Origin: Eledone cirrhosa
Lineage: Eukaryota
Length of the DNA stretch: 64,000 nucleotides
Direction: 5' to 3'
NCBI GenBank assembly: GCA_964016885.1
Contig: OZ024741.1
Span: forward strand, 58,404,001-58,468,000
Shown: piece by piece, positions 16,623 through 64,000 of the stretch
Numbering within the stretch: the stretch's first letter is position 1
How the letters are laid out: each line of letters begins with the position of its first letter
The notes under the pieces: generated by a model
Database searches by the model: none
What the model saw: the letters and a program-made list of their open reading frames with translations, nothing else
Told to the model about the DNA's origin: nothing
Made by a program: the position numbers and the translations under genes

Positions 16623-16624
16623 AA

Positions 16625-37996: not shown

Positions 37997-40925
37997 ATCA
38001 TTATCATCATCATCATCGCCGTTTAACGTCCATCTTCCACGCTTGCATGGGTTTGGATGGGAATTTTCCCACTTAAGGCAAGATTGGTTGTCTTGCTCGT
38101 ATAGGACTGTCTGGCGGGTTTTCTACGGCTGGATGCCCTTCCTAACACCAACCACGTTTACAGTGTGGACTGGGAGGTTTTTACCGTGTTACCTACACGG
38201 CCACATTACAGCGTGGAAGATGTGTATTTTTTGTCGTGACACCTACACGACCTCATTTATTTAGAACTGGATGTTGTGGTACCAACATAACTTTACATCG
38301 AAAGTGGTGGTGTGGATGGGGTGGTGGTAGTGGGATGGAGGTGTATTTTTGTTAAGAGGTGCCTACTGACTAGGTTTCGCTTTGTACTTAGGCAAGGCGG
38401 GTCTTCTCTATTACTGTGTAGCGCCAAAGATCTTGGTCCAGAGACATTGTCTTGGAGAGGTGTAAGTGTGTGAGGTCGGAATTTATCAAGTCGTCCCAGG
38501 TTTTTCTGGGTCTGCCTACTCCGTGGTTACCGTCTATTTTTATCGCCCTGCACTTTTTTATACAGCTGTCGTCTTTCATGCGCATCACATGACCATACCA
38601 ACGTAGTCTTCTCTCGAGTAAACAACATATGATCCCTCTTATTCATAATTTCTCCCTTAGTTCATTTATGCTTTGCCGTTCACGTATATTACTATTACAC
38701 ATCCAACGGAGCATGCAAGCTTCGTTCATTTCCAGTCTGCATATATCCACTGCACACGATGCCCAAGTCTCACTGCCATGTAACATTGCTGTTCGTATGC
38801 AGGCATCATACAGCCTGCCTTTCATTTTTAGTGAGAACCCTTTAGAGGCCAATAGTGGCATAAGCTCTCTGAACTTTTTCCATCGCGTTCTGACTCTAGC
38901 TACTGTACTTTCAGAGCACCCTCCACCACTGCTGATTTTGTCACCCAGGTACCGGAAGGTGTCCACTATTTCTATAGAACCATCTGTGCAATGGAATGAG
39001 CTAGTATTTTGTGGGCACTTACTGCTACTTATTGCACCTGAGCACTGGCCACATATAAAATCTATATTCTTAGTTAGCTTACCTGTGATCCCACTACATC
39101 TTTTATGCACCCATACTTTGCATTTGGGACATAAAATGGAGTTTCTGCTTACTCCTTTCCTACACACTGAGCATGGCCATTTCCCAGATAGGACCAGTGC
39201 CCTATTTTCCTTCCTAAAAACTAGAACTTTAGTCTTACACAGGTTAATTTTAAGGCCTTTTGATTCTAGGCCATGCTTCCATGTTTGGAATTTCTTCTCT
39301 AGTTCAGCCATTGATTCAGCTATGAGCGTTAGATCATCTGCGTATAGGAGATCCCATGGGCAGCCTGTCTTGAACTCCTCTGTAATAGCCTGAAGGGCAA
39401 TAATAAATAGTAGGGGGCTAAGGATGGAGCCCTAATAAACACCAACTTTTACGCTAAACTCTTCACTATATTCGTTAATTCTAACCTAGCTGACTGTTTC
39501 TTTATACATGGCTTGTATAGCTCTCACAAGCCATTCATCAACACCTAGTTTTCTAAGAGCCCACCAGATAATGGAGCGGGGGACTCTGTCAAAGGCTTTC
39601 TCCAAGTCAACAAAAGCTAAGTATAGGGGTTTACTTTTAGCTAGGTACTTCTGTGGTTGTCGTACAATGAAAAGAGCGTCTGTGGTACTTTTACCTGACA
39701 CAAACCCGAACTGCATTTTATCTAGATCAATTCGCTCTCTGATTAGTTGCGCTATTTTTTCTGTGACGTTCATGACCTGGTCAATTAATTTAATGCTTCT
39801 ATAGTTTCCCCTATCTAAGGCATCTCCTTTACCCTTGTAGCAGTTAATGATGCTGCTGCTGCTACGCCAGTCCTTCAGAATGACCCCATTCTGTATGACT
39901 TGGTTTACTATCCGGGTGACCATAGTGTGTCCCACCGTTCCAGAGGCTTTCAGCATTTCAGAAATTATTTCCGAAGGCCCAGCCGCCTTGCCTGTCTTCA
40001 TATCTTTGATCGCCTTACTTATTATACTACCTTCAACTTGCACTGCTGGTCCCTCTATTGGATCGATGTGGGGGAGACTGTCTTTCTCCCATTTATTCTC
40101 CTCATTTAGTAGCCTTTCGTAGTGACACTTCCAAGCTACCTTCTTATCAGCGTCAGTGATGGCAAGTACACCATCATCATTAAGGACACACCTCTCCCCG
40201 ACAATATCACGGTTTTCCTTGACACATTGCCTAGCAATCCTGAACACCTCACGTTTTTGGTCCTCGTGTTGTAGAACATGCTTGAACTTTGTTTCCTCTG
40301 CTTCCCTTCTTGCAAAGTACACTTGTCTCCTGGCCACTTGATAGTCTTCTCTACTTCCCCCATCTCGCCATGCTTTCCAAGCCTGCTTTTTGGCCTTGAT
40401 TGACTCCTCCACCTTACTGTTCCACCACCAAGTTACTCTCCTCCTGCCTATAGGTCTGCTCCAGCCACAGATTTCATCTGTCGCCTTCAGCAGGTTAGCT
40501 TTCAGGAATTCCCACTGTTCCTCTATATTGTACGACTCTAATTGCTCTTCCTTACTATCAAAAGCATCAAGTAATATGCTTTTAAATTTATTTCTGGCTG
40601 TGGAGTCCTTTAGCCTCCATATTTTTCCCCTGAGGATAGTCCTCCTCTGTTGTCGAGTACGTCTCATCCTCACTATGAGGTCGCTAATTATCAGTCTATG
40701 TTGGGAGGTGCATTCTTCATGGGGGAGGGATTTAGTGTTTACAACAGACACCATGTCATATCTTCTGGTAAGGATATAATCTATCTGGCTGCTGTGTTCC
40801 CCTGATCTATAGGTGATCAAGTGATTGTCTCGTTTTTTGAAGTTAGTGTTACAGATAGTTAGGTTACTTGCATCACAGAATTCCAGGATTCTGGAGCCTT
40901 CCTCATTTCTAGTACCAAACCCATA
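37997..40925 (-). mobile_element. RTE LINE family A, 5'-truncated copy
   Basis: Colinear and highly similar to 21722-24663; several stops/frameshifts; (ATG)n tail. Confidence 0.95.
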
Positions 40926-40952
40926 GCACGTTAATAACAAACACGGTAATAA

Positions 40953-41206
40953 CATCATCATCATCATCATCATTTTACGTCCGCGTTTCCTTGCTTGCAA
41001 GGGTGGGATGGGAACTGATTCTGGCTTGATTTCTACAGCTGGATACCCTTCCTAACACCAACCTCATTTACAGTGAGTACTGGGTGCTTTTTGCCGTGGC
41101 ACCTCCACGACCACTTTGCAGTGGAATGATAGGTACTCCAGTCCCTATCATCTCATTTCTACAGCTGAGTAAACTGGAGCAATGTGAAATAAAGTGTCTT
41201 GCTCAA
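40953..41206 (-). mobile_element. 5'-truncated young SINE with long flanking direct repeat
   Basis: Matches 25690-25930; flanked by CACGTTAATAACAAACACG(G/T)TAATAACA at 40927-40954 and 41208-41235. Confidence 0.9.
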
Positions 41207-43799
41207 ACACGTTAATAACAAACACGTTAATAACAATTGTTTACAAATAGTATTTCATATATCAGCTATATTTGCCTTTTGAAAATCAAGGACAGGAAAT
41301 TGATAAAATAAATTAATAAAGGGGAACATAATATCTGCTGTTTTACATTCTTTAACATCATGAGAACCTGAATAATCTAGTGATATATGTGTGTGAGATT
41401 GAAAATTTTACAATTTTATAAAAAGTTTACATTGACATGGACTGTATTCAGATAATTTATTCCTTTTTTTTTCCTTCATAAACAAGGGTTATATTATACA
41501 CAAATAAATATGTTATGTTGTTTAAAATAAACTATAAAACTGAGTTTCTTCCTTGGTAGATGTTTCATTGTGTCAAGATTTTCTGGAGTATTGTTATTGC
41601 TTTCTAAGGTGTTTAGGACTTTTTGTAAATTTATCTAGGAAAGAGTTCATTTATTTTCATAATCTGAATTTTAATGAGTAATATATATTTACATCATCAT
41701 TATCATTTTTATGTTTGCCTTTCCATGCTGGATAATAGAAAAAATAGCCCAGTGAGATGTGATAGAGTACTAACTAAAAAATCTTTCATTGGCAATAGAT
41801 GCTTAATATCAACTAGACTACATATACATTCAAAGATCAACCAAAGATATGCATTGAGTATATGTCAGTTTTATGTATTTCCCCATAAATTGCAAAAATG
41901 ATGAATTTAATATACAGCATAAATATAGTATTAAAATAATTGTTTCTACTTTTGGCACAAGGCCAGCAATTACCCAGTACATTACTGGTACTTTATTTTA
42001 TCGACCCCGTAAGGATGAAAGGCAAAGTTAACCTCAGCGAGATTTGAACTCAGATCATAAAGCGACAATGCTGTGATTTGAGAAAAAAGGAAACCAAAAC
42101 GATTGAGAAAAGAAATATATATTTTCATGTTTGTTCTATTCTTCAACAATAATGTAGGCAGTGTGAAACGAAAATAACTTTCTACAAACACTCAGCTACT
42201 GACAATTACGCGCATGCATGCTCCTACACACTTTCCCTAGCATTGGTTTTGTCTCAATATCTTTCATATGTTACCTACCACTTCAGTCAGCAGGTATACT
42301 CCAACTTCACCTGATATGTTAGTCTCTCTCCTCCTCCTCTCTCTATATGATGTAAAATGTGACCTCTAAAATCTGACCAACCAACATACTGGGTATTATA
42401 TTATAGAGACACTTTTTTTTGTTTTTAACTGCTATTATTGCTAAATTATATAGGGGATTTTTTTTTTTTTGTATTAAAAAAAAAATGATTTTTATTTATG
42501 TCGAAATTTTCTTTTCTTTTTTCTTTCTATCTTAAAATATCTTTGATGTTAAATATCTTTTTCTCACTTACTATGACTTGTAAATGATTTTCTTTGCAAA
42601 TGGGACATTTTTTGTCACAGAATGTTCTGTTTGTAATTAACTTTCTGATATTGTATATTAAACATGCTTTTTTTTGTGATGGTGGAAGCCATCAAACTGT
42701 TTTTATATTAATGCCTAACGTCCTACAAGTATTTAGCAGAAAATACTGAAATAGGCTTGTTTATTCAGATGTTTATAATACTTCTAAGGGTTGATGCCCT
42801 TCTTAATGCCAACCAGTTAACATAGTGTACTGAGTACATGTTATTGTAGCACCAGCACTAGGGAGGTTGTTCTATCTTTGACATGTTTTCTATAACAGGA
42901 GCCCTTCCTAATGCCAATTGTTTTACAGAGTGAACTGGGTACATTTTATCTATAAGTATATCATGGTACATATTAAAATTTACTTTCATTCCATTCAATT
43001 TTGTAAGTTCTCGATTCTGTTTAAGAAAACATACTTCAGATAGAGGATTATATTCTGAGACTTAAGCATTAATGTCAACTGACATAGATTACTAAAGTAA
43101 AATCTGATAGGTTGTATATATCATGTGAATTTCTCTCTCTCTCTCTCTCTCTCTCTACCCATACACACATACATTGTGAAGCTGTGTAGCCTAGTGTATA
43201 AGGTACTAGATGCATGGTCATAAGGTTGGTTTGATTCTTGGACCAGGCTATGCATTGCATTCTTCAGCAAAATATTCAGTTTGCATTGCTTTTCATGATG
43301 GGACTGGGTCCTCTATCATTAAAATACTCAAGAAACCTGAGATGCAACCTTGTCAGAGGCCAGCTAAACCTGCATAGGCATTAACTGTAAATTACATTTC
43401 ATTTTCTTAATACTACAGTCACACACTGCAGTAAAATACTCTCTCTCTATATATAAAACACACACACACACACACACAACAGTTAAGTACACAAACATTA
43501 CAGTTCAGTACACATGAAAGTGTGAAGCTGAAGAAATAATATTTTAAAAACATCAGTTATCCAAATTAAACAGTTTAAAACTAATCTACGAATGAGAAGA
43601 CCTCTGTCATTAGTTTTTTTTAATGTTTGTTAATTATCTGTTATGCTGTTTTCATGTTGTAATAAAAATAATTTTTACTGCATATTTATATTTATCTATT
43701 TTCACAAGAAATATAATTTACAATAAAAATGGTTGTGTATGTATGCTTTGTTTATTGAATGTATCTGTGTGTGTGTATTGTATATACTTGTGATGTTGG

Positions 43800-44185
43800 T
43801 AAAGGCACGTGGCTTAGAGGTTAAGGTGTTAGGTTAATGATCATAAGGTTTGTGAGTTTCATTCGTGGATTATGTTGTCCTTAAGCATGACAGTATTTGA
43901 CATTGGTCTAGTCACACTTGGGTAGAAAACAAATTAGTTGTGATAACACATGCAAATCAACCTTTTCCTTACTTAGATAATATCATATATAGTGCATATA
44001 CAAGTTGTGATGATAGTGGTTCCAAGCTGTATTAGTCTTTCCCTTTCTCTTGTACATCAGTGGTGTAGAGAGAGGAGACTGGCATGTATTGCTAACTTCC
44101 ACAAAATACTTTGGTCTTATTTGTACCATGCAGTGGAACTTTCATGGAGAGGAACTCATGGTCAACCGTGACCAAGGATCTTTTT
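43800..44185 (+). mobile_element. Old tRNA-headed SINE
   Basis: ggcacgtggcttagaggttaaggtg ... gagtttcattc head, tccttaagca.gaca core; comparable heads at ~5365, 8865, 18822, 26992, 43178, 48062. Confidence 0.55.
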
Positions 44186-44464
44186 TTAGGTGGAGGATGC
44201 ATTGTTTCTCAAATGTTAGTGTGTATATACCTGTGTGTGGTTGGTGTGTTGTATAAAGTGTTTTGATTTATATTAGGAAGGGCATTCAGCTGTAGAAACC
44301 AACCCAAAATACAGATCCATATGAACAAGATGTGGGTTACCTGACGTGACTTGTCTCATAACATAACAACCCATCTAACCCATGCAAGTATGGAAAAATA
44401 GATGTTAAATGATGATGATGGTGATGATGGTGATGATTAAATATATATATATATATATATATAT

Positions 44465-45947
44465 GGTACAAAGGTAAAGGGGATGCTCTGGAGAGGAGCA
44501 ATTATAGGGGTATAAAACTGATAGATCAGGTTATGAAAGTGGCAGAAAGGATATTAGCACAACTAATTAGAGAAAGGGTCAAACTAGATGAGATGCAGTT
44601 TGGTTTTGTGCCTGGGAAGAGTACAACAGATGCCCTCTTCTTGGTGAGACAATTGCAAGAGAGGTTCTTAGAGAAAAATAAGCCACTATACTTAGCCTTT
44701 GTTGACCTAGAGAAGGCCTTTGATAGGGTACCTCGATCTGTCATCTGGTGGTCCCTAAGGAAGCTAGGTGTTGAGGAATGGCTTGTGAGGACAGTGCAAA
44801 CTTTGTACTGAGGTACTCTCAGTAAAGTCAGGGTAGGAATGGAGTTTAGTGAGGAATTCCAGATACAAGTAGGAGTACATCAGGATTCGGTCCTCAGCCC
44901 GCTCTTGTTCATTATAGTCCTCCAAGCCATAACAGAGGAGTTTAAGACTGGCTGTCCATGGGAATTTCTCTATGCTGACGATCTGGTTCTTATAGCAGAA
45001 TCAGTAGAGGAGCTAGAGAATAAATTCTGGCTATGGAAACAGCAGTTGGAAACAAGAGGACTGAGAGTGAACCTAGCTAAGACAAAAGTGTTGATGAGTA
45101 GAAAAGAGGACAAAACCCTGATTCCGTCAAGGAAATGGCCATGTTCGATATAAATTCTATAAAATGCACACAATGCAGATCCTGGGTACACAAGAGATGT
45201 AGCGGGATAGCAGGCAAACTAACAGGTAGGGAGAAATATGTATGCAGTAGATGTACAGGGAAATTAGACAGTAGAAGTCGCATTGATAGACACATTTTTC
45301 AAATGCAGGAGGGCGCTATAGAAGTGGTGGATAGCTTCCGGTACCTAGGAGATCAGATTAGCATGGGAGGAGGGTGTTTCGAGGCCATAGTATCTAGAAT
45401 AAGGATGGGTTGGAAGAAGTTTAGGGAGCTGCTTCCTCTGTTGACGAAGAAGGGTTTCTCCCTGCGTACGAAAGGCCGGCTGTATGATGCCTGTGTGAGG
45501 AGCGCGATGCTGCATGGTAGTGAGACATGGGCAGCAACTGCAGAGGATATGCGACGGCTGGAGAGAAATGAGGCAAGCATGCTCCGTTGGATGTGCGTGA
45601 ACGACCCAGCATAAATGTGTTGAGAGAGAAACTGTGTCTGAGAGGGATAGAATGTAGTGTACGGGAGACGAGACTGAGGTGGTATGGACATGTGATGCGC
45701 ATGGAGGATGACCGATGGGTGAAGAAGTGCCAGGAAATGCCAGTTGAAGGAAGACGTGGTAGAGGTAGACCACGAAAAACATGGGCGGAGGTGGTGAGAA
45801 CAGACCTCAGATCATTGAAGCTCACGGTGAAGATGACGAAGGACCGTGACGAGTGGAGAGATGCTGTGCTGAATAAGACCCGTCCCACCCTTGCAAGCAG
45901 GGAAAAGCGGACGTAAAATGATGATGAAATGATGATGATGATGATGA
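44465..45947 (+). mobile_element. RTE LINE family B, 5'-truncated
   Basis: YKGKGDAL, DLEKAFDRVP, YADD, PHD-like Cys cluster, FRYLG, RLRWYGH, GRPRKTW; ORF stop (45914-45916) runs straight into (ATG)n tail. Confidence 0.95.
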
Positions 45948-48900
45948 TATACACACACACATACACTGAGACAAACCTGTGATGGGTGCATTGAAGAAAA
46001 TAAAAATAAAAGATTGTTTTATTTGAATGTCAGGTTTATTTATTTAACAAGTTGAATTAATACGATTTCTAGAATATTAAATTTTTTCAATTTAGAAAAT
46101 TTATCTAATCTGCAAATTATAATTTTTTGTGTGAAGATTAACAGCTCCTCGATCTCACTTTCATACAATGCATGTGCACATGTTTGTGTGATGTATGTAT
46201 CTATGTGTGTTGTGTATGTATGTATGTGGTGTATGCATGTGTGAGATGTATGTATGCATGCGTGATGTATTTTTGTGTATGCATCAATGCATGTATGTGT
46301 ACATTTCTATTCTATGAAAAAAATAATTAAGGAATTTGTTTTGGTTCTTCCTCGAATGAGTTGGCAAATAAATTAAACTAAGGTGTACACATACATGTAC
46401 ATGCACGTACACACACACACATGTATGTATATATATATATATTCACATGTGTGTGTATATATATATATATATATACACACACACATACATGCACACCATA
46501 CATATATATCTCATTTGCTTGTTTAATTTTCTGTAACTGCATAAAATTAAGAAATAAATTTGAGATTTGATTATGCTTCAATCAGCATTATCTAATTTCA
46601 ATGTTTGAACAATAAACTACCATTTTAGATATGCAAAAGTGTGTGTGTGTGTGTAATATGTGTGTAAGAGTCTATATAAACTGTTGTGTGTATATATATA
46701 AACTATGCACATATGGTCACATCATCATTTTATGTCTTCTTTCTGAGATGGTTTGTCATGGCCCAAGACTAGACAGGTCAAAGAGACTGCATCTTATATG
46801 TTCCATATTTAGCATGGTTCCTATGGATGGATACCCTTCTTAGTGCAAATCACCTTAAAGAATGCAATGTGTACAACACATCAACCCTACCATTTTACTG
46901 AAAGTACCAAGTGAATTTTGTATCACCAATGCAATCATTTTCCAGGGTGTACTGCATGTATTTTATTGTAGCACCCACACTAGAGGGATTTTCCTATGCT
47001 CAGCAAAGCTGAAAAATCTTTTCTATCCTATATTGTCTCCATTGTATTGCCAACCACTACAGTGTATGCTGGGTGATTTTATCATGGTGCCAGCACTGCC
47101 ACTTTTCTATCATACTCCAATGCTTGATCAATAAATATGAGTGTGTGAGTGGTGGTAAAAAAACCCAGGTTATATTCATAGTTGGTAGAGCACTCTGTTC
47201 AAAGGACGAGTTTGGTATAGAGTTAGTTCTATATGGATATATTTTAACTGATAGAATTGACACAACTAATTTTCAATAAAATCAAAAGTAATTTTGTTAA
47301 ACTGTTTGACCACAGCAAATGCTCAATATTTGGTCCATTTCAAATCCGTTTAGAGGATGCTCTAATGGTAGATGGTGTGACCAAATCCTAAAACAGTTTC
47401 AATGTCAACATTGGCAGAAATCAATCCAATGATAATGAACAGAGATAAATGGAGGAAATATGTTCATGATGTTACATACTCTGCTATATGTGGAAATAAC
47501 AATTTAAATAACACAATATATATAATACTTTAATATTTCATCAATAAACTACAATCATGTGTGTGTGTTTGTGTAAACTATGCAAATGTTATTGTATCTC
47601 ATCTGTATATACACAATATAATCTCACCACAATTGGCTATAAACAGAAATTTAGTAAAATAATTAATGAAAATGTAATTAAATAGATAATTTTATTTATG
47701 TAATTATTCTTATTTAACTGGTTTCAGCCACTGGGCTGTAACTGTTCTGCATTGCTGCTTTTAATGGGTTTTAACCCTTTCGTTACCATATTTTTAATGA
47801 AACACACTCAGAGATTTTCAAGGAATTTTGAAAATAATCAAAAATTTGGAGAGATTTAGTAAAATTAAACAATTTGATAAATAGAATTCCTGGCCTTGTG
47901 CCTAAGTTAGAAACTATTATTGTTGTTATGTGGGCAGTGGATTAGCAACTTTTAGTTACAGCCATTTATGTTCTGAGGTCAATTTTATCAACTTTCCTTT
48001 CAGGTTGCCAGTTGCTGGCTTTGTGCCAAAATTAATCTTATTCTTATTTTGTATTGTGTACACAGCATGGCCAAATGGTTAAGAAGTTCGCTTTGTAATC
48101 ATTAGGTCCTATGTTTGAATCCCACTGCATAGCATTTTGGGCAAATGTCATTTACCATAGACTTTGGTTGACCTATGCTTTGCAAGTGAAATTGGATAAA
48201 GGGAAAACTATTTTCTGTTTGGAAGCCCATCAGATGGACTGTACCTGTAATTCAAAGGGCCAACATTGTCACACACTGAATTCCCCTGAAGGTACACGTG
48301 TTTGTGGAATGCTCAGCCACTTGCATGTTATTTTCATGAGCATGCTGTTCCATTGTTCAATCAAGTGAAACATTCTTTATCGAAAGTGACAGGGGTTCTT
48401 TCCATTGTTATTACTATTTATTACAGCTATTCTTATGTAGAATATGTTAATTCACTTAATTAGAATTAGCTATGATCCTGAGCACTTGATTAAGTTATAT
48501 TGTCTGTATAATTGGATGAAAATATATTTAAACAGGTTTCATCTGGTATTCATATTGTCTGTTGTATATTGAATTATTCATATAAAACAACAATAACCAC
48601 TTCCTAATTAAATGTAGAAATAATTTTATGATACCGATGATGATATTGATTATTTTTAGTAATGTTATATCTTTTACTTCAGTTGGTACTACACTTCTTT
48701 CCATAGTATATTCTATATATGTATATGTCATCATCATCATTAGTTTTATGTCCACTTCCTACACTGTCATGGGTTGGGTGGATTGTGATGGTTCAAGACT
48801 GGAAAAATTAGGAATGACTTCATCTTGCTCATATCTTCCATATTTGGCAAGATTTCTATGGCTGGATGCCCTTCCTAACGCAACCAGCTTGCAGGATGTA

Positions 48901-49784
48901 CTGGGTGCATTTATTGTTGTTTATCTTTTGTGTCATCACCACTACCAATTTACAGAGTGTACTGGGTGTATTTTAACATAGCACCAACACTAAAGAGGTT
49001 ACTTGGACCGAAGAGACCTCATAGACTGTTATATTGTCTCTGTTTAATCTCCAAATACTGTATAATAAGGTCTCCCTTCTTCTTGCTGTTTTTGCTGTCC
49101 TTGCTGTCATTCCCATTTACTGCCACTTCTGCCTGCCGTTTTTTCTCCTTTCTTCATCTTCTTTCGTCTTTTAACTCTCTTCTCCCTTCTTCTTGCTGCT
49201 CTTGCTGTAACTTCCACTGTCCAAAAGCTTTTGCTGTCCTTTCTAGCAGCAGCCTGATGTCGATAGGCTGCTCTTTGCTTCGCTCTCTGATCTGTATGTC
49301 TGTCTATCTGTTCTGTTCATTTTGCAGTCCTTCCTAGAGGTGGCTTGGTGTTGATAGGATACACTTTACCTCGCTCTCTGATTTGTCTGCCTATGTATCT
49401 GTTCTGTTTGTTTTATCATTCACACATTATACCAGTAGAAAGATTTATTTTTTTCTGTTGCATGATCCAGCATTTTTAAAATGGTACTCTCAATTAAATC
49501 ATGTGAAACTATTTTGCTAGTTTGAGAGCTGAGGGTGAAGATGTGTGTGAACTTGTCTTGAACATTATCTTTATTTCCTTTTTCCACTATCTTCTATGCA
49601 ATAACACATTCTCCTTGTCTTATTTCAATCTTTTCTATATTTCATCTGCCTGTCGCCCACCTTGTGGATTTGTCCTCTGAGGCATTTTTGCCCATTGCTG
49701 TCATTGACAGCATTTGGCTGTTTTAACAACTGTTCTAGCATTGAGTTTTCTCAATCAGGCACAACAATGTTTATTCATTATATA

Positions 49785-50552
49785 TATAAATTGCTACAAG
49801 GGCAAAGGTGATGCCCTAGAAAGAAGCAACTATAAAGAAATAAAACTAATGGACCAAGTTGTGAAAGTGATGGAAAGAGTTATAGTGCAACTAATTAGAG
49901 AAAGAGTCAAATTAGAAAAGATGCAGTTTGGTTTTATGCCTGGGAAAAGTATTACAGATGCCCTCATTTTAGTGAGGCAACTACAAGAGAAGTTCTTCAC
50001 CAAACATACGCCACTATACCTAGCTTTCATTAATCTAGAAAAAGCGTTTGACAGAGTACCTCAATCTATTATCTGATGGTCCTTAAGAAAATTACGTGTA
50101 GAAGAATGGTTGGTGAGAGCAGTGCAAGCCATGAACAGAGGAGCTGTCAGCAAAGTGTGAGTTTAGTGAGGAATTCAAGATACAAGGAGTTCATCAAGGT
50201 TCAGTTCTTAGCCTACTACTATTCATTATAATTCTCCAGTCTATAACAGGAGTTTAAGACTGGCTGCCCATGGGAACATCTCTATGCAGATGATCTTGTC
50301 CTATAGCTGAATCCATTAAAGAACTACTAAATAAGTTCTGACTATGGAAACATAATTTAGAATCTAAAGGTCTAGGAGTAAACTTAGCCAAAACTAAAGT
50401 GCTAGTAAGTAGGAGAGAAGACTGGACCATGATTCCTTCGGGGAAGTGGCCCTGCTCAATATGTAGAAACTCCATACGTACACAAGAGATGTAGTGGGAT
50501 AATGGGTAGACTAACAGGAAGGGAAGACTTTGTTTGTAGAAGATGCACAGAG
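49785..50552 (+). mobile_element. Older internal RTE fragment (family B-like)
   Basis: NCYKGKGDALERSNY ... LEKAFDRVP ... YADD ... GKWPCSIC; many lesions; no 3' tail. Confidence 0.85.
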
Positions 50553-50790
50553 GTACCCGAAGGGAAGAGAGCCGGTGATGTAATCCTATTCCAGTTACAA
50601 TTTAGAATTGACAATGACAGTTTATATTCTATTATTTTTCATTTTTTAATTCCCATATTTTGCTCGCCAATGCGGTAGATTTTTGAAGCTCCAGATAAAC
50701 AGCTCTTTTAGGGCGTAACTTAGTGATCAAACGTGTGTTAGAATGTGTAATTAAGTTTTTCTACTCACGCCTTGTCTGTTTTTCCTAACA
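50553..50790 (-). mobile_element. Probable Penelope-like element fragment (GIY-YIG endonuclease C-terminal part)
   Basis: Minus-strand translation KSTALASKIWELKNEK..EYKLSLSIL resembles the T.LS..IW.LK...I.W.I motif of Penelope endonucleases. Confidence 0.5.
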
Positions 50791-51904
50791 TATTGATATA
50801 TATATAAACAAAACTTCATAGTTTGTCTTTATATATATATATATATATATATATGATGTATTAGCACTATGGTCCAAAAATAATTAACTGAATTAGAAAA
50901 TCTTTATAAATTGAATATAGCAAAATAAAATAACACTAATGAGTAAATGCAGTAAATTTGTTTTCCCTAGTTTTAAGATATCACCATCATCAGAAGTACT
51001 TTTATTTGTGCTGATGTCTTATCAGCTATAGTTATATTATCAGTCTCTCTTATCTATAACTTTCTTGTTTGTAAAAATGCAAGATTTTGAGAAAGCTGTT
51101 AAAAATTTCTGAAAGTTTGTCTTTTTGTTGAACACTGGTTCATTTGTATTAACTTGAAAAGTTTGATTTATATAATTTTAAAATCATCAGATGAAAAGAT
51201 AATGAGATATAATAAACAAAATAACATTTTATATCTGTAAATTTATCATCTCTGCAGTTTATCTTTTATTGTAGCTTTATCACTTTTAATGAGGTTTGTT
51301 CATATAGCATTACTAGATACACAATATATTTAATCAAAGCAGTCAAACTTCAATAATTATAGACAGTCAGTTGTTAGAGCATAGGGAAAATACCTTACAG
51401 TATTTACTCCAGGTCTCTGTGTTCAAATCGTGCCATGGTCAACTTTGTTTATATCCTTTTAGGGATGGTAAAATAAAGTACTAGTTTAAGGCAATGGATT
51501 GGCAAAATTGTTACAGTATCAGATGAGATGTCTTGTAGTATTTGTTCCAGCTCTTTGCATTCTGAATTGAAATCCTGCTGTGGCTTTAGTTGAGTGGTAA
51601 ACTTGATTTCGCACAACCACCTGGCCCTTCATTGGTTTTAGCAGTCCGCTTTGTTGCAAACATTTGAGCTGGGGCTCCGACTTCAGGATGTGTTCCTCAC
51701 ACCTCTTGAAATTAAATAATGTCATGAGGACTGCCATTCCCTTCATAGCTAAACAGGTAAAAATATATATATATTTATATCCTTAGGATCATTTTCACTG
51801 TTGCTTTACCCCTTTCCAATGAAAGACACAACCTATTACTTCAAATAATTTTGAAAATAACGAAAAATTTGGAAGGATTTAGTAATATAACTTTTTCATA
51901 TTTT

Positions 51905-52226
51905 GAACATAACAAAGGAAGATCAAAACAGGAAAATCAAAGCCAACAAATCAGATAGTGTAGTCAAAGACTGCAAAGAAAAGAAATGCTTTCTAATTGA
52001 TGACAATATATGTCATCAGGGAAATGGAGAAATTATCCAAATATAAAGATCTGGAGATAGAAATGATCTGATTGCGGATAAGAAAAACAGAAACAATCCC
52101 TATAATGACAGGTGCTCTAGCAATAATAAATAATACACAGGTAGATACATAACCCAACTCCAGAATATATACAAAACTAATGATGATAATAATAATAATA
52201 ATAATAATAATAATAGTAGTAATAAT
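51905..52226 (+). mobile_element. Dong/R4 LINE 3' end (restriction-like endonuclease) with (AAT)n tail
   Basis: RKIKANKSD.VVKD.KEKKCFLID ... EKLSKYKDLEIE ... TIPI..GAL; TAA-repeat tail ~52178-52226. Confidence 0.75.
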
Positions 52227-53190
52227 TGGTTGAATCTAACAAAGTTGAAAAGGAAATATTGTTGAAAGGCCGAAAGGAAACATTTTCATGTGGATTGTTT
52301 TTTTGTTTTTTTTTTGTTTTTTTTTTAATTCTTTCAAATCAGAGAAATTAATTTGTAATTCACTTTATAGAATTTCTCATTACTAATTTTTTATGTTTTT
52401 TATATTATGCTTCATTCTAGTTGTCGCTGTGTACAATTGCTGTTCTTGTCTGGGGGAAAAAAAAAAGAAGGCTCATCATTATCATTATAGTTATTAATTA
52501 GTGTGTGTTAATAGCTTTTTTCATTTAGTTTATTAGTTGTTATAATTGCTTTGCATCATAATGTAACATCAGCTCATGTTATTAGAATAATATTTAGTTT
52601 CTAGCTTGAGATATTGTCATCAGCAATTACTGTCAACTTACCTGGTTGGCATGGGGTGATGAGCTGTTGTGGTCTGTGTGTAGACTGTTCAGGAGAGCAT
52701 GTCTAGCTCATGCATTCCATTTTGGGCATGGTTTCTATGGTTGGGAGAATTTTAACATGGCTCCAGCACTACCATTTTACTGGGTGGATTGGGTGCTTTT
52801 TACCATGACACTAGCATCAACACTTAATAGCGTGCTTTTTATTGACACTTGAATGTTGTGTAATTAATATTTAATTGCATTTCAAAACAATTTTTTCCTG
52901 CTTTTCTGTATTTTCTTTCTTTCTTTCTTGAAATCTATTATACTTTTAATGGTTTGTTTCCAGTTACTGTAAATTGCTACCTATAATGGACTGGTTGAGC
53001 CTGAAGTTTTGCACTTTAGAGACAGAATGATAGAACAAAAGAATGTGACAATCTTTCATTGGTTGATTTTTACTGATGCCGTTAGTCACTACACTTACAC
53101 CGATACATACACATATATGTCATTAAGATTTGTTATCATTTCTCCTGAATGTTTGTATATGTAAGTTACTTTTTAGTTTATATTATTGAA

Positions 53191-53272
53191 TTAATATCAT
53201 TTTATTTTCTTTCATTGCAGGTAAGTGTTCTTGTGAAATATTGGTGAATAGAAACATATAATATTGGTGAGT
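53191..53272 (+). promoter_or_regulatory. Candidate recursive splice site with 46-nt cryptic RS-exon
   Basis: TTAAT branch-like motif, TTTTATTTTCTTTCATTGCAG|GTAAGT (53220/53221), second donor G|GTGAGT at 53267. Confidence 0.6.
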
Positions 53273-53339
53273 AATATTATGTAATAGGGGGTTTATGATT
53301 TTATTTTTTATTTTTTAAATTATCAATTAAGAATAAATA

Positions 53340-53570
53340 GATAAATTTGATGGGAAAATGCTAGGACAGTCTGGAAAACATGCTGTGAGCATTTTGAGAT
53401 GAGGCATAGAGGTTTTGTAGGTCACTCACTCAGCAAGTGAAGTTGTTGAGAAAACTGGTTTCTACTGGGACACAAGTCAGTGCCTGATCAACCCTGGCTA
53501 GTTTACCTAGGCAAGGGTGTATGATGTTGAAAGACCAATGACTCCAGCTCACATCACTGGCGATGAATCC
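53340..53570 (+). mobile_element. HERO/R2-like LINE 3' remnant; another at ~56755-56975
   Basis: RGFVGHSL-like coding relic followed by cctgatcaaccctggct...agggtgtatgatgttgaaagacc...catcactg, recalled as HERO-type 3' UTR; second copy has ASCWLW motif. Confidence 0.5.
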
Positions 53571-54260
53571 CAGCTCATCTACAAGGATGAATTTTGCACA
53601 CCAAAAGAATAATTGTCGGAAATAGAAACTGATGTTTTGCGTGAGCTTTTCTTGAAACTTTTATTTGTACTATAGAGTGACACATAATATTTCAGGTAAA
53701 TTTGGAAGTATGTTTGCCACTATAGGTGCCACACCATCATGACATAGGTGTTCTCACCCCTGCATCTTTCCCCTATGCTCTCAAAAGGCATCCCTTCTCC
53801 ACTGATCACTTTGTCAAATCATATCACGCCATGACTTCATACTTATCTCCCTTCTCCTATCATCTCTACCCAACATCTACAGAGCAGCGAATGCTCTTCC
53901 ATTGGGACTCTTCCGTGAGACTCTTCTGGTGCCACTAAAATGCACCCGGTACACCATGTAATGTTAGCGACAGGAAGGACACGCTGCTGTAGAAACCATA
54001 CCTAAAAAGCATTAAGAACCTTCAGTTGTATCAAGGACATAAAACTCCCTAGTTTTGGTGATCTATGCTATAAACTCATCCAGTACAAACTGTAAAGTGA
54101 TTGAAAATACTGTATATAAAAATGGAAAAAAAAAGGAACTCACTATACCTACATTTGGCTAAAATGTTTCACAAGTTTGTCCATGCCAAAACACTATACA
54201 TAGAGTATTAAAGAAAGCAGAAATTTGAAGAGAAAAAAGGAATATATATTTTCATATATG

Positions 54261-55225
54261 ATAGAAATAGTGGACACCTGGGTGACAAAATCAGCAGTGG
54301 GGGAGGGTGCTCTGAAAGTACAGTAGCTAGAGTCAGAACTGGATGGAAAAAGTTCAGAGAGCTTATACTACTATTAGCCGCTAAAGGGTTCTCCCTAAAA
54401 ATGAAAGGCAGGTTGTACGATGCCTGCATACGAACAGCAATGTTGCATGGCAGTGAGACCTGGGCATTGTGTGCAGAGAATATACGCAGACTAGAGAGAA
54501 ACAAAGCTTGCATGCTCTGCTGGATGTGTAATAGTAATATACGTGAACGGCAAAGCATAAATGAACTAAGGAAAAAATTAGAAATAAGAGGGATCAGATG
54601 TTGTTTACTCGAGAGAAGGCTACGTTGGTATGGTCACATGATGCGCATGAAGGACGATAGCTGTATAACAAAGTGCAGGGCAATAAAGATAGACGGTAGT
54701 CACGGAATAGGCAGACCCAGAAAAACCTGGGACGAGCTGATAAATTCCGACCTCACACACTTACACCTCACCAAGACGATGTCACTGGACCGAGATCTTT
54801 GGCGGTACTCAGTAATAGAGAAGACCCGCCTTACCTAAATACAAAGTAAAACCTACTACAGTCAGTAGGCATCTCTAACAAAATACACCCCCGTCCCACC
54901 ACCCCCACCCCATCCACACCGCCCCTTTCAATGTAAAGTTATGTTGGTGCCACAACATCCAGGCCGAAACAAATGAGATCGTGTAGGTGTCACGTCAAAA
55001 AAACACACAGTTCACGCTGTAATGTGGCCGTGTAGGCAACACGGTGAAAAACCTCCCAGCCCCACACTGTAAATGTGGTTGGTGTTAGGAAGGGCATCCA
55101 GCTGTAGAAAACCCACCAGATAGTCCTATGCGAGCAAGATAACCACTCTTGCCTCAAGTGGGAAAACCCCCGTCCAAACCCATGCAAGAGTGGAACACGG
55201 ACGTTAAACGATGATGATGATGATG
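54261..55225 (+). mobile_element. RTE LINE family A, short 3' copy in opposite orientation
   Basis: Near-identical reverse complement of 21722-22705; ORF 54401-54838; (ATG)n tail. Confidence 0.95.
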
Positions 55226-58200
55226 TGTGATTGACTGAAGGGAAATAATGAAATCATGCTTTGATGGATGTCCAATGTTAATGTGTTTGAGTGACAAAGC
55301 ATGGATAAACTGAGAGAGAAACTTGGTATATGAGGAAGCAGAGAGAGAAGACGATGCTGGTTTGGACATGTGATGTGCATGGATGATAATCATTAGGTGA
55401 AGAAGTCCCAGTGGAAGGAAGTCACAGTAGAAGACCTGTATGGAGGTGGTGACAGCTGATCTCAACCTGCTGAAACTCAGGAGATGACAGGGATGTGACA
55501 AGTAAGGATATGCTCTGCTGAAAAAGTCTTGTCAAACCCATGCAAGTGTAAAATGATGATTATGATGGTGTATTCATCAGAAACAATGAAAAGAAACTGA
55601 AACCTTAAACAAAACCTCAGCTGATAAGTTACGTGTGTGTGTGTGTGTGCACATTTGCACTTGCATATATATTTGTTTCTCTGTGTGTGTTCTCACTTTC
55701 TCGCTCTCTCTTCCCTTTTCTGTTTTTAAATGCAACCTCTGACAAACCCCAATCAATACATCAGCTACTATATATTAGAAATATTTTACTTATTGTTGTT
55801 CCAATGTTGGTAATATTCTATCAATAATAAGTAAACCTTTAAAAACTTACCTCGTCATATTTCAAGATGTAGAAATATAGTGACTGTATCTATAATACAT
55901 TACTTAGTTTGATACTTTATGTTATTTTATATAATTGACTAAAATCCCTTGAAAGTGATATCCCAGCATGGTCGTAGTCCAATGACTAAAACCAGTGAAA
56001 GAATAAAAGAATATTTATTTCTGTTCATATGGGATTGTCTTGAAGAGACATCAGACATTTTCCTTTTAGCTATCTGTTGCTATTTCTCTTTACTTAATCC
56101 CAGCTCTTTTAGGAATTGTTTCAACTAAGATTTTGTTAAGTCTACTTTTTACTCTAGAACCATTTATTATTATTATTATTATTATTATCATTCCATTCAT
56201 CAGATCAAGAAAAAGATTTCATGGTAGAAAAAGTACTAATGCTGTCTGGTTCAAATTATTCTTCTTCTATTTTTATTTGGTGAGGAGAGAGAGATACAGA
56301 GAGGGGAGAGGGGGGGGGGGGGGCAGTTGTTAAGCATCTAAATTTAAATAATTGATTATTGAGAATCTCATAGAAGAACTGAATGTGGTAAACTTCATTT
56401 CCATATGTTAACACCCAGTTTTTTTCTAAGTTGTTAACTAACTAATGCTAAAATATTTCCACTACTCAAAGCAATTAACTACTGCAAGCTTGAAAGTATT
56501 ATTTTTTTCTTTGCTTTGTCAGGATAATTGGTAACAAAAACTATATAACAATATATCATTATTATAGAGGGTTGGACGTCATACTTTGACGCATAGTTAC
56601 GGCCCTTTCCATTCTGAGTTCAAATCCCGCCGAGGTCAACTTTGCCTTTCATCCTTACGGGGTCGATAAAATAAAGTACCAGTAATGTACTGCGTAATTG
56701 CTGGTCTTGTGCCAAAAGTAGAAACAAATATTATTTGATATCCATTTTCCCTACTAGCAATGGTTAGATGGGTTGTCACAAATGGTACTGCCAGCAAAAT
56801 GAGCCTCTTGTTGGTTATGGAGTAAGAAAGAGGAGTTAAGTTGGAAGCCAGAAGATGGGCAGTGATTTGGCAACCATTGCTGGCTCACCAATGAGAGGGC
56901 GTTACCGTTCAGAGTCAAAACACTCAGTGGGCATTGGGCATATTCTGATAACATCAGCTCCTCCTGGCCATTCTCTGAAAGTTAATGAGTTTGAGGTATA
57001 TCCTTTAAGATGTAAATATCCTTATATAGTTACAAAAAATATCCTTATACAGAAACCAAAAGTATTTAATAAAACAAATCTCAATTAATATATTTTTTAG
57101 AAGAAAATACATTTTCTGTGGTTAATGAGTTTGCTTTGCAATCATGTAGATCTGTGTTCAGTTCTTCAATGCAGAACCTTGTCTTCTCTAGCCTCAAATT
57201 GACCAGTGCTTTGTAAGTGAAATTTGGTAGATGGAAACTGCAGATGCCATATAAATATACACCCTCTCCACACAAATGTTTCTTGAAATCAACTATTCAA
57301 TTATTCTATACTTTCAAAGAAAGTAGTGTAGATATTATAATACATATAGTCGCTACATTTAAGCTTAAGCTATTTTGATGGTTTAAGCTCGACTGTAGGG
57401 CTTATATATCACACATATATATATATATGAATGTATTTTTATATATATGTATTTGAGAGAGAGAAATGCCTGTATTTGTAAATCTGTACTGTAAGGAAAA
57501 TTGAAACTGCAGTCCTTGTTTTTGTTTGTTTATTACAAGACCTAACAGGATTAACTATGTTGTCTGTTGATATTTAATGTCAATATATTTTGTTTTACAA
57601 ATCTTTACACAATTGTTTATCCTCTTCACAAAAGATTATAAAGATATATATCCTCATCATCATCACTGTTTTTCATTTGATTGCCATCCTGGCATGGGTT
57701 GGGTGGGTTGGCATGTTCTAGTATAGAGAGGTCCAATGAACATATCTTGTTCATGTTTAATTTTGGCATGGTTTCTATAGTTGGATGCCAACAACTTGAC
57801 AGCATGTGCTGGGTGTGTTTTATCGTTGCACCAGATCACTACTACTTTACAGAGTATATTGAGTGCATTTTATTGTGACTCTAATACTACCACTTTAGAG
57901 AGTGGACAGGGTGTATTTTATTGTAGCAACAGCACTATCACTTTACAGATTGGGATGAATGCATTATATCATGACAATTACCCCTATTTGGCAGGGAGAG
58001 GTAATAATGGTAGTGATGTGATGTGAGAGTAAGGCGAAAGTGGCACAGTTTGCAATGGCCACTACATGCTGCTTGCCAAGAGGGAATCTTGTAAATATGT
58101 ATATTTATATATCTCTTTTTGTTTTTTGTTTTTTTTATTGACAAATTGCATTGAATTGTTTTTGTAATAAAACCTCAAAAAGTGATATGTCTAAACTAAA

Positions 58201-61200
58201 ATTAATGTACAATATAGACTCAAAAACTTTGATATTTACATACACTTCATGTAAAAGTGGACCCTAGATTAATGATGTTGTCCTGAACATAAGTTTTAAC
58301 AGTTAGGAAATTAACTTTTCAAAACTTATGTCCTTATGTATGCAAGTGGAGACATATAAGAGTTACATAGCCTTTTTTATGTGTTTCGTTAGTAGGAAGT
58401 GTATTTTGATGGTTAGAAACATTGATATTTGCTGTAATTCATTGGTTTTATTCTTTAGAGTCTATTTAGGCTTCTGCTTATTGATAGAGTATTTTGGTTG
58501 AATTGTGAAATTTAGTCCCTCACAAGTTGTATCTATGTAATAGATGACCCATAAATTTAACTTTAAAAAATAGTCTAAAGAATTTGACTTTTACATGAGT
58601 ATAAATGATGGACTTTAACATCAGTATATGACAGATGATATTTTAGCTTTAACTAATAATATTCTGAGGCAGTGTTTGAGGTAGTGAAGTGAAAAGAGTT
58701 TAATTTATTTCCGTTGTTTGAAGTAAGACTGTTACCATTCTAATAGCTATTGCAAAGTGTTTCATTTAGGAACTATAGTTGACATCCAGCTCTTTCTTTC
58801 TTTCTTTTTTTTATTGTTAGAATGAATACATTAGTTTTGTTGTTATATTTATCAATTAAAGCTAAAAACAAAATTAGTTTCTAAGCAAATTTAATTTATT
58901 GAAATAATCATTAGTGGTTTCACTACACATTCAATGATTCACTGGCTATTCTCTTTGATGGCTATCCTCTCCCAGATTTTTTATACTCTAGGAAAACATT
59001 GAAATTCTTCAACTGGTAGAAGTGTCTCAAAATTTAATCACCTAACTGTCTTTGATAATTCATTCATGCTAATACATTCAGCCAAGCATTGTTATGTAGA
59101 AAAACAACTCATTTCTATTGACCAAAGCTGGTGGCTGGCAGCCAATTACTGGTGCACTATGTTCATTTTGAAATGATACTTTTTTTGTACATTGATAATT
59201 TTTTCTGGCATTAAGGAAATAGAATTCATTGCTTCCAGTGTCCACCATGCATTGACCATATCTTTCTTTTGATGAAGAATAGTTCCTGAGTCTCAGACTT
59301 GGCCAGCAACACTGCTGTAAATGTTCTGATATACAACTTATATATTCATGTGTATGTCACACCTCTTTTATATACAACATTTACATTCACCAGTTAATCA
59401 AAGCCACTGACCCTTGAATGGGCCAGTGGGCTGCTTCTCGTTTACATATGATCCAGCACTACAGAGTACACTGGGTACATTTTATTGACACCAACACTAC
59501 AGAGTACACTGGGTTCATTTTATTGACACCAACACCAATGTGGTTGTCTTTCTCTCGATACAACTCAAGGGTTCTCTCCATTCTATGTTCAAGTTTTCTA
59601 TGGCTGGATGCCCTTCCTAACACAACTACTCTACAGAGTGTACTAGCTGCATTTTCCATGGTACTAGTACTATAGTCCTCTTGACCCTATGTACCATATA
59701 TTTTGAATTGTAATTTTGTAGGTCTAGTAGATAAATCAGATAAACAATGGTTTTTCATGTCATTTATGTAGAATATGTGACTTTATATCAAGTCACTCCT
59801 CTATTTTACTTAAAACATTTACAGTGTACTATATATTTTACATTTAAGCTTTGTAGGTTCAATAAATAAGCTATATGCTAGTTTGTCAAAGTTTTGTTGG
59901 AAAAGGTGCAACGTATATACAAGTATATACTTGGTAGCAGGGAAAAGAAACATTAAATAATTGTTTCTACTTTAGGCACAAGGCCAGCAATTACCCAGTA
60001 CATTACTGGTACTTTATTTTATCGACCCTATAAGGATGAAAGGCAAAGTTAACCTCGGCGGGATTTGAACTCAGACTGTAAAGGGACATAACTATGCTAG
60101 AAAGCATGATGATATGTAGTGTTGGTGCCATGATAAAATGCACTTGGTATGCTCTGTAAAATGGTTGGCATTAAGATCTAGCCATTAAAACCATGCCAAA
60201 ATATGGAATGTATAGGCAAGGTATGGTATCTAAACCTTCTAGTCATGGATTGTGGTGGCATGTCCAGCCCATGCCAGCATAGGAAGCGAACTTACTATGT
60301 TGAAGATAATGATAATAAAATAATCTATTTTAAATGCAATTTAAGGTCCTCACTTAAAAATGAGTTATTATTGTGATATCAAAGCAGCACACTTGAAATA
60401 TCCATAGAATACCTTTTGTTAGTATCTCTCAGTTCTTAAGAGATGTTGACATTTCCAAATTAATTTCTGTATGTGGATTTCTTCAACATGATAATTGGTT
60501 TTGGGACTGGTTGCCATGATTTACTGTCTAGTCTGGACTAATGCAGTGAAAGTTGCTTGCTTGAGATAGCCATTTTGGCTATGAGGTTAACAAATTCACT
60601 TCACAACCAAATGGTTTCAGGTTCAGTCCTACTGTATAGCACCTTGAATAATTGTTTTCTACTATAGCCTTAAGTTGACTCTGTGTGTCTGTGTTTGTGA
60701 CCATGCCTGAATTACATCAGTATCTCTGCCTGTGTTTATGTCCTGTAACCTACTGGCTTAACAAACTAGATTGATATAATAAGTACCAGACTTGAAAAAA
60801 TATGTACTGAAGTAGATATTATCAACTAAATCCCTTTGTGGTTGTGCCCCACTGCATGGCCACAATCTAATGACTAAATCCAGTAAAGGGCATATATAAT
60901 GACAATGTTCATATTTAATAAGTGAAATATGTTTATTTATACAGAAATAAAATAACATTTTTTTTTTACTTCCAATTTATCAAGTATGATAAATCATGTG
61001 TGCCTACATAATACATACATATTTCCTAATGGCAAAAATGTATGCTTTTCGCACACGCACCGCACATGCACCGAGAGAGAGAGCTACTTTACTGTTGAAA
61101 GACAGATCAATTGTTACAATTATTAGAGAAATGGAAGCTAAAACAAAAGAAATTAACTCTTTTGTTACCAGATTTCTAATGAAAGACATTACCTATGAGT

Positions 61201-62484
61201 TTCAAATGATTTTGAATTGATACGAATTTAGTCATATAACTAGTGTTTGGAACATAACACCAGACAAAGTATTTAATTAAAAATATGGCCATGAATGGGT
61301 TATTATAAGTAATTAAGCAACTAATAAATTTCTTGAATATCTATCTACAACATCAAGATAGTTTTGATAAGAAAATTATGAATATTTATTCAGTTGTACA
61401 CTGATATTTCAGATGTGACCTGTGGTTTGATGTAAAAGCCCATTTCTTTTGTTTATGACTTTTAGTCTTTATTGAAAGATTCTGATAAATATCAAAAGGA
61501 AGACATAATTCTTCTTCAATATCTGGATCAGTGTTTCTCAAAGTGAGAAATGAATTTTTGAGGTTTTGCAAATAAAGTTCTAGGGTGTGCAAATTAACAC
61601 TTTTGATACCAAGCCACCAGAAACTGCCTTTGATCCTGTGATACAAAACTATTTTTAAAGTTTTTATATTTATCTAAAAAATCTTCTATCACAATTTTAT
61701 GTAAAAGCTTTTATGTTCCAAACATCAAGCTTAATAGTGAGATAGTTGGTAAATCTCTTCAAAGTCTTGATTATTTTCAAAATGTGAAAACCACAGGCAA
61801 TAACAAAAGGGTTAAGGTGCCTTTTAGTAAAGATTTATTTATTTTGTCTGACTAAAACTCATAATGTGGTTCTTTTTGAGGTAGTGTTTTACAGCCAGAT
61901 GCTCTTTCTGGCACCAACCCTTTTAGTTGCCTCATATAATATGCATTGATACAATGTGCCTATTTTAAACTAGCTATAAAATATACCTCAAAAAGGATCC
62001 CATAGAGAGTGTGAAGCTTATGATTAAAATGACTTTCTTTTTGGAAAGGATAAAAAGAAACTCATTTTCCTAATCCTCCGGTATTCCAAATCCTAAAATC
62101 TTTTATTCTTTCAAATCATTGTATTTAGAACCTAATGTTAATTTGCCTCAGTGAATAAATACTTCCACTCAGTAGAAGGATATCTTCTTTCACTGAGTTT
62201 ATTTGGCTGAATATCAAAAGGATTAACCCTTGTGATACCAACCTGGCCAAAACCAGCTCTGTTTCTATGAAACAAAACCACCCATTTTAAAGGGTTCCTA
62301 TTTAAATTATCTAATGTAAGTTTATATAAGAACCATATGTTAAATTACTTACTAATGAAATAATTGAGTTTTCGTAAATCTCTCAAAGTGCTTTATTTAC
62401 AAATTGAAATAGTGTATTTTATTAGAAATATGGTTATGGAAGGATCAAAAGGTCCCCCATTTAAATTAAAATTTCCAGCATAAT

Positions 62485-63475
62485 CTCTCTCTACATAAAA
62501 TTGTCTGTCTGTCTGTTTCCTTATGCATTCTTAAACAGCTCAACCAAACCAAATTGTCTGTTTCCTTATGCATTCTCAAACGGCTCAACCAAACCAAATC
62601 AAATCAAATTTTACAAGGTAATAGTATTAGACCCTGGGATTAACATGTAATTTTTATTTTCATTTTCATTAAAACAATATGACATTTTATCTAAAACATT
62701 CTACTATAGTCTATAAAGTAAATGACATTTTATAACATGATGGTCACATTTTGTATATGAGTGTGTATGTGTCTGTGAGTGTGTGTGTGTGTTTGCATGG
62801 TCACATTTTGTATATGAGTGTGTCTGAGTGTGTGTGTCTGTTTGCACGTTCATTACATATGTTAGGCCTTAGTAAGTTACATACACATACATCTTCACTT
62901 AAATATTTAATCAGATACACAGAGAATTAAACACACACACACACATCTACATATGTGATGACTGACAAGTATGTGTGTGAATGTATGTGAGGTTGAATTT
63001 AAGAGGCTTCAGTTACCAGTCAAACTAAGTTTTGTTACTTCAATCAACAAGCTGTTCTTATTCAGATTAGTAAACAATAAATATAGAGATTTTTTTCTCA
63101 TATTTCAAAAATCTACATTTCATAAAAAAAAAAATCAAAATTGTAATGATAATAGAATTTAGAAATGAAAATCTGCACTCAAGGACTTGATCACTCTACT
63201 ACATGTTTCTCCCACGGTCAACTCTATGTTGGTTGCTCATGAGCTGGAAGCAGCAACAATTTATTCATTTGGTCACCGACAAAAAATTACACAATGAATA
63301 TTGTTTACTCTGAGGTGCTTCAAGATTGACAGATTTTCATTTCTAAATTCTATTATCATTACAATTTTGATATTTTTTTTAATGAAATGTAGATACTTTG
63401 AAATATGAGAAAAAAATATATCTCTATCTGAATAAGAACAGCAGTAACCTGGGCAATGCCAGGTCATTCAGCTAA
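62485..63475 (+). mobile_element. Possible non-autonomous Helitron
   Basis: 5' TC..tacataaaattgtctgtctgtctg.. (internally duplicated 62500-62600); 3' hairpin CCTGGGCAATGCCAGG followed by tcattcagCTAA (CTRR). Confidence 0.5.
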
Positions 63476-64000
63476 TATTATATAAGAATCTTGTTTAATT
63501 GCTATCTTAGTAATGAAATAATTTTACTATATCTCTCAAAATGTTTTATTAATTAATTGAAATAGTATTTTCCATTAGAATTATGGTCACAAAAGTATTG
63601 CGTCAAGAAGTAAAAAAAGCACCTGTATTTTGCTTTTACCTAATGGTTATTTTTAATATTGGCAATGGTATTATCTTTTCTTTAAATAACTCAAGTAAAA
63701 GCTTGTCTAAATATGTTTAATATTATGTCTCAGTTTATAAAGTTTAGGTTTATTCACACACAAGTAGCTGATTGAAGGAATTTTAGACAATTTTATAAAG
63801 GTCATTCTGAACATGTTCAAAATGTTATTAATCTTTATCCAATTAATTTTTACATTTATGCATAGTTGGAATTCTTTGAACATACCATTTTGAAAATATT
63901 TATGTTATATATAATGTTGCATGGAGATGATGTTACTAATTGAGACCATTATTCAACTTAGTACACCATAGATATTATTATAGTCAAGCTTAAACCATTT

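Follow-up and report, generated by a model that had tools for sequence, protein, structure and literature searches.

Recursive splicing is established in flies and sparse in vertebrates. The closest described systems are the Drosophila ratchet points (Ubx, kuz, Bx; PMC8605326, PMC6110457), which in the available text of these sources consist of a tandem acceptor|donor with a very strong 3' signal within an intron of great length; further traits (PMC8605326) are out-of-frame cryptic exons of ~50 nt, weaker downstream donors and several sites per long intron. The site described here, at position 53221 of the analysed window (64,000 nucleotides of the Eledone cirrhosa genome; G000:C2:58404001-58468000), is like them in all of these respects. 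Unlike them, it lies in a mollusc, delimits intron segments of 52-103 kb and is known here from sequence alone. Moreover, an unrelated gene contains a homologue of it whose exon body is alignable, whereas RS-exon bodies of flies are poorly conserved according to the accessible part of PMC8605326.

For insects and sea urchin, Shepard et al. 2009 (PMC2773006) reported more RP-sites in large introns than expected; by its available text, their survey covered 13 species and no mollusc. The evidence presented below is of the same kind, i.e., motif excess and strand bias, and the density of two sites per 445 kb of host introns is close to the 0.5 per 100 kb listed there for bee and sea urchin. How sites originate or become duplicated is not addressed in the available part of that survey. 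Vertebrate RS-exons, as outlined in PMC8605326 and bioRxiv 10.1101/2024.12.11.627982, resemble the present case in that exon definition is followed by donor competition. The accessible text of the latter source describes a small number of fully skipped sites among vertebrates, with no increase in the lungfish despite its giant genome; unlike vertebrates, the octopod genome holds 133 motif sites in six narrow patterns alone, most of them beyond chance expectation. Among titles and abstract openings, with subscription papers thinly covered, we found no study of recursive splicing in molluscs and nothing relevant to the origin or duplication of ratchet points.

The 53221 site, ratchet point 2 of its intron, is a CAG|GTAAGT at 53218-53226 on the plus strand, with CAG at 53218-53220 and GTAAGT at 53221-53226. 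It is preceded on the same strand by a branch-point-like TTAAT (53191-53195), whose A at -27 is the putative branch nucleotide, and by an 18-nt polypyrimidine tract (53200-53217); an AG-free zone of 44 nt lies upstream. A candidate cryptic RS-exon of 46 nt (53221-53266, plus strand) ends at the donor GTGAGT (53267-53272). An earlier note, made from the letters alone, had placed these elements within 53191..53272, and sequence inspection located every one of them there. It did not mention a weak plus-strand donor, G|GTGAAT, at +23 (53244-53249). By our own approximate matrices, which were not trained on the Eledone cirrhosa genome, the acceptor scores 8.8, the top value for AG|GT sites outside repeats in the introns of the host gene, RXYLT1; CAG|GTAAGT scores 8.6, the +46 donor TTG|GTGAGT 5.0 and the +23 donor 1.5, compared with 5.2 for the homologous GTGAGT of the PDSS2 copy introduced below. 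As at Drosophila-type ratchet points, a strong 3' acceptor is juxtaposed with a consensus 5' donor, and a cryptic donor about 50 nt downstream is weaker than the regenerated one (5.0 versus 8.6 at +46).

CAG|GTAAGT is in itself a perfect donor, and an A+T-rich non-coding exon missing from annotation, or a nested transcript, could have its 5' splice site here, with the tract being exonic; a nested non-coding transcript is compatible with the sequence. This explanation is very improbable in our opinion, given the acceptor hallmarks upstream (the branch-like motif, the AG-free zone and the top-scoring tract) and the fact that an Rfam search at E<=1 matched no known RNA family at the site. Tandem Repeats Finder detected no tandem array at the site.

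The gene around the site was recognised from a candidate exon 276 kb along that matches RXYLT1/TMEM5, a glycosylation gene. With an Argonauta protein as query, tblastn and own-genome searches placed six RXYLT1 exons on the plus strand between window coordinates -101701 and 344348, and the same query found no second RXYLT1 copy in the genome. The exons join into an intact open frame of 437 aa that is identical to Octopus sinensis RXYLT1 in 429 of 438 columns. The window (1..64000) lies wholly inside intron 1, which spans 253,625 nt (-101562 to 152062, plus strand) and has no N gap. The 53221 site thus has sense orientation in a very long intron, as is typical of ratchet points; an intergenic location or minus-strand transcription, either of which had been named as an argument against recursive splicing, does not apply, the region being intronic and the host gene lying on the plus strand. 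The last three bases of RXYLT1 exon 1 are CAG, and joining this exon to 53221 would recreate CAG|GTAAGT. In six octopod-like RXYLT1 proteins the exon 1/2 junction, where modelled, is free of insertions; a cryptic exon with a stop would not show in such protein sets.

Several features of the RXYLT1 locus are recorded here for completeness. The giant intron is closed by the weak acceptor of exon 2 (152063-152236; 174 nt), and an O. bimaculoides isoform is without the residues that match this exon. A C2H2 zinc-finger coding sequence is nested antisense in intron 3 (~230900-231850, minus strand). Two further ratchet-like motifs lie upstream of the gene, at -260536 (minus strand) and -162500 (plus strand).

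A second candidate, ratchet point 1, was found by pattern match at 1070..1091 of the plus strand, where a tract and TAG|GTAAGT form a junction at 1086. No strong donor follows it (best score 1.2, at +32), and it is unrelated in sequence to the 53221 site. The two sites divide intron 1 into segments of 102,648, 52,135 and 98,842 nt; segments of at least 100 kb with no visible ratchet point persist, which counts against a fly-type reading, as does the lack of a strong cryptic donor behind 1086. Sites 1086 and 53221 are the only strong acceptor+GTAAGT sites outside repeats in the five RXYLT1 introns (~445 kb), and both are in sense orientation. A tract+YAG|GTAAGT pattern, fitted post hoc to these two sites, has two matches in the window (1086 and 53221) versus a mean of 0.01 in 100 shuffles. 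The expected number of such sites on the sense strand of intron 1 is 0.013, by an independence estimate with our own approximate score matrix. A look-alike, tract+TAG|GTAAGG with GTAAGT 70 nt downstream, is carried by a LINE-like repeat at window positions 22121 (plus) and 54834 (minus), and further copies occupy both strands of the flanks; the total for RXYLT1 intron 1 is three sense and three antisense, i.e., no strand bias.

DNA searches of the same genome revealed one other copy of the element, at G000:C1:194986432-194986538 on the minus strand. The shared stretch in the window, 53156..53265 (plus strand), spans -65 to +45 around the junction and is 82% identical over 111 columns. The local alignment score is 135, whereas shuffles reach no more than 71 and 24 unrelated sites no more than 83, and the junction itself falls within 23 bases identical between the twins. 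The earlier description of 53191..53272 as apparently non-repeat thus holds as to high-copy repeats and fails as to this one homologue on another chromosome. An interspersed family would have many dispersed copies; the searches recovered two of the element, versus 40-58 for neighbouring old repeats, although short copies can escape this DNA search. In three public runs from a single sample, contigs agree with both copies at every base of the element; they are DNA-like and the assembly may derive from this very sample, so that the match carries no independent support and no inference on expression.

The twin lies in a giant-intron gene as well. A candidate exon 385 kb upstream of it matches octopod PDSS2, and PDSS2 exons on the minus strand flank it on both sides at 385 kb and 179 kb. 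It is sense-oriented, between the last two mapped PDSS2 exons, in a gap-free stretch of 563.8 kb that has no other strong site. PDSS2 also contains an antisense site, which is weaker and is followed by a donor. Together, the mapped genes RXYLT1 and PDSS2 hold three sense versus no antisense strong sites, a count that alone is not significant. PDSS2 proteins of other animals fit a direct join across the 564-kb stretch, which may nonetheless comprise two introns by way of a 36-nt candidate exon at C1:194962735. No small exon within the 564 kb clearly matches the 13 extra residues of one O. bimaculoides PDSS2 isoform, and when 80 of the 92 listed candidate exons near the twin were compared with Pfam, the sole match was sub-threshold. 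A coding PDSS2 micro-exon at the twin was rejected, since 23 nt are incompatible with the phase 0-0 gap.

The mapped PDSS2 exons extend over C1:194.81-195.73 Mb (>920 kb) and are separated by gaps that include two of 351 and 564 kb. A young intronless PDSS2 copy, 96-99% identical to three exons, is found at C3:290.115 Mb (minus strand), and its 3' end meets a common repeat exactly at an exon end. It is likely a retrocopy of a transcript whose last exon was repeat-derived and lay within the 351-kb intron.

Other routes to a two-copy element were considered and rejected. No collinear homology exists beyond the twin element, and a larger segmental duplication is disfavoured by repeat-masked flanks that align like shuffles (63 versus 54+-8 upstream, 41 versus 38+-4 downstream); the remaining C1/C2 matches in the vicinity of the twin belong to high-copy repeats. 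Paralogous hosts do not explain the pair, RXYLT1 being single-copy and the twin being located within PDSS2. Nor does the element represent the terminus of the adjacent MITE-like repeat: of the other 24 copies listed, not one extends into it, and a profile search found no copy of this repeat beside the window site; the repeat adjoining the twin is a separate insertion.

The twins differ in their downstream donors. In the PDSS2 copy a G|GTGAGT donor is intact at +23 and there is no +46 donor, the 13 nt that hold the latter in the window (53266-53278, plus strand, with the donor at 53267-53272 and a 7-nt direct repeat as boundary) being missing. These 13 nt resemble the +23 donor region, which suggests that the +46 donor is a local duplicate; the difference may reflect a gain in RXYLT1 or a loss in PDSS2. 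The RXYLT1 copy fits the class pattern described below better than its twin does, since 23 nt is shorter than every strong donor distance seen in the class.

The existence of a homologous copy also means that one of the twins could be a passive copy. Taken further, the RXYLT1 copy would be an unused duplicate or a chance match, and the cassette would work, or have worked, elsewhere, for instance in PDSS2 or within a low-copy repeat now extinct. Such a passenger would agree with the derivation of about half of the region from repeats, with the similar motifs that repeats bear, and with the presence of chance members in the motif class. However, only two copies were found by a search that recovers 40-58 of the neighbouring old repeats, the element is no part of the adjacent MITE-like repeat, and each copy retains an intact GTGAGT, the sense orientation and the 23 identical bases across the junction. 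We therefore regard a passive role as unlikely.

From its sequence and surroundings, the 53221 site is in our judgement probably a fly-type ratchet point of RXYLT1 intron 1. The steps that follow are modelled on the anatomy of the site and on the Drosophila mechanism as presented in the available text of PMC8605326 and PMC6110457. U2 factors on the branch motif, tract and AG, together with U1 on the +46 donor, would define the cryptic exon. Exon 1, probably ratcheted to 1086 beforehand, would then be joined to 53221, where the regenerated CAG|GTAAGT (8.6) would beat TTG|GTGAGT (5.0) and splice to exon 2, 99 kb away, leaving no trace of the ratchet site in the mRNA. Rare use of the +46 donor would yield a transcript with a stop at 59 aa, a substrate for decay. 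As to origin, we propose that one of the two introns, in RXYLT1 or PDSS2, received the cassette from the other by duplication, in either direction, and that similarity has since stayed recognisable only near the splice signals. The RXYLT1 copy would have acquired its +46 donor through a local duplication of 13 nt, at a distance within the 33-74 nt range where strong class donors cluster. The recursive-splicing reading of the earlier note thus gains support, as a prediction from sequence, from the host gene, the strand and the enrichment of the motif class.

The 53221 site can be described as a molluscan candidate ratchet point with good sequence support, to which is added a homologous cassette in an unrelated giant-intron gene. 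Housekeeping genes of this octopod have introns of 250-560 kb at the loci considered here, which makes the mode of their removal a real question, and the site supplies exact coordinates for RT-PCR. As two unrelated genes share a homologous cassette, birth by copying becomes testable across related octopod genomes.

The genome-wide enrichment proposed in the earlier note is borne out. The motif class exceeds its mismatch control by approximately 3-5x, and neighbouring sites are strand-concordant. The strict tract+CAG|GTAAGT pattern has 24 sites versus 37 for the mismatch control with GTAAHT, which is 2.7-5.0x the background hexamer ratios (from 1.06 Mb of local DNA; p 2e-4 to 2e-8); the pattern that contains the 53221 site gives 22 versus 30. 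A control with reversed patterns was mixed: it showed no excess for the first pattern (24 motif versus 21 reversed), exceeded the motif for two patterns (3 versus 76 and 19 versus 122) and fell below it for three (22 versus 1, 27 versus 6 and 38 versus 17). An enrichment of 3-5x implies that a fifth to a third of the class are chance members.

The placement of the sites serves as a separate test. The 133 sites of the six patterns include 19 neighbours within 500 kb, versus 2.9 expected if they were uniformly distributed, of which 18 are on the same strand (p 4e-5) at a minimum spacing of 32 kb; 67 control sites form seven close pairs, in three local clusters that resemble tandem copies. A branch-like YTAAY was found at 19/24 sites versus 5/20 controls in set 1 and at 11/22 versus 6/30 in set 2, and the median AG-free zone was 71 versus 31.5 nt and 55.5 versus 36 nt, respectively. 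Cryptic donors follow 10/24 sites versus 2/20 controls in set 1, and 2/22 versus 3/30 in set 2 (rank test p 0.12), which holds the 53221 site as one of its two; the donor enrichment of set 1 thus did not recur in the set to which this site belongs, and this counts against the ratchet-point reading. The inspected flanks were those of 69 of the 133 sites, 20 of them hand-picked for identical tracts, and of 50 of the 67 controls; four of these 20 seem to belong to a single repeat family. When pooled, with the 53221 site, its PDSS2 twin and site 1086 excluded, 14/67 sites versus 5/50 controls have a strong donor at +25..79 (rank test p 0.001), and only 3/67 of the same sites have one at +100..154. 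All 14 strong downstream donors are at +33 to +74, with none at +7 to +32. By these sequence measures, the class of ratchet motifs looks selected in the Eledone cirrhosa genome.

Individual members of the class include a match at C2:81241046 (minus strand), five ratchet-like motifs, all minus, over 1.2 Mb at C4:227.98-229.16 Mb, and three plus-strand motifs at C17:32.59-32.75 Mb. The C4 and C17 runs are candidates for very long genes.

Inclusion of the 46-nt exon had been said to cause a frameshift, which is right, and the exon moreover contains an in-frame TAA; joined to exon 1, it would place a stop at codon 60 and give a 59-aa product. The term "poison exon" is therefore apt as far as the premature stop that would follow, the inclusion itself being putative. 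A regulated exon of this kind, lowering RXYLT1 through nonsense-mediated decay and with AG|GTAAGT acting mainly as a switch, would account for the full exon anatomy with its in-frame stop. It would likewise suit the likeness of the twins' exon bodies beyond the signals, which the available text of PMC8605326 does not lead one to expect of fly RS-exons, where these bodies are poorly conserved. Yet the regenerated donor is far stronger (8.6 versus 5.0), a setting in which fly cryptic exons are skipped according to the same text; class sites are spaced and strand-concordant along long loci, and the twin is devoid of the +46 donor. We consider regulated inclusion quite unlikely as the main role of the site.

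A broader proposal, advanced here tentatively and in our estimate with less than an even chance of being right, is that octopod ratchet points are portable. Short duplications would carry the cassette of branch, tract, AG|GTAAGT and cryptic exon between unrelated giant introns, and selection would keep sense landings and tune exon length. If so, the RXYLT1/PDSS2 twins, together with three further pairs (84-97% identity), are snapshots of recursive splicing spreading with intron expansion. The pairs emerged from an all-against-all comparison of the 69 inspected sites. Two are from the 47 other, unselected sites, namely C11:30583436/C24:19102150 (84% over 68 nt) and C3:65645929/C6:77850181 (88% over 66 nt, with a downstream GTAAGT in both). 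The third and youngest, C1:356294162/C3:203096773 (88% over 333 columns), is from the 20 hand-picked sites. Each pair is cross-chromosome, centred on the motif and present in two copies, a lower bound given that the DNA search overlooked the known C24 partner (84%, 68 nt). In 50 controls, homology was confined to one repeat family of seven members and to tandem copies.

Unrelated host genes are established only for the RXYLT1/PDSS2 pair. No exons were recognised in 50-kb regions around the four sites of the C11/C24 and C3/C6 pairs, and the C1/C3 pair was viewed over 600 nt only; the hosts of all three may be paralogous genes. Pairs of homologous sites such as these offer a test of selection inside one genome. 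In the C1/C3 pair, with the selected motif left out, the core is identical at 105/108 positions versus 107/127 in the flanks (p 5.5e-4, with core/flank borders chosen after inspection). This pattern is as expected if both copies are under constraint, and gene conversion would look alike.
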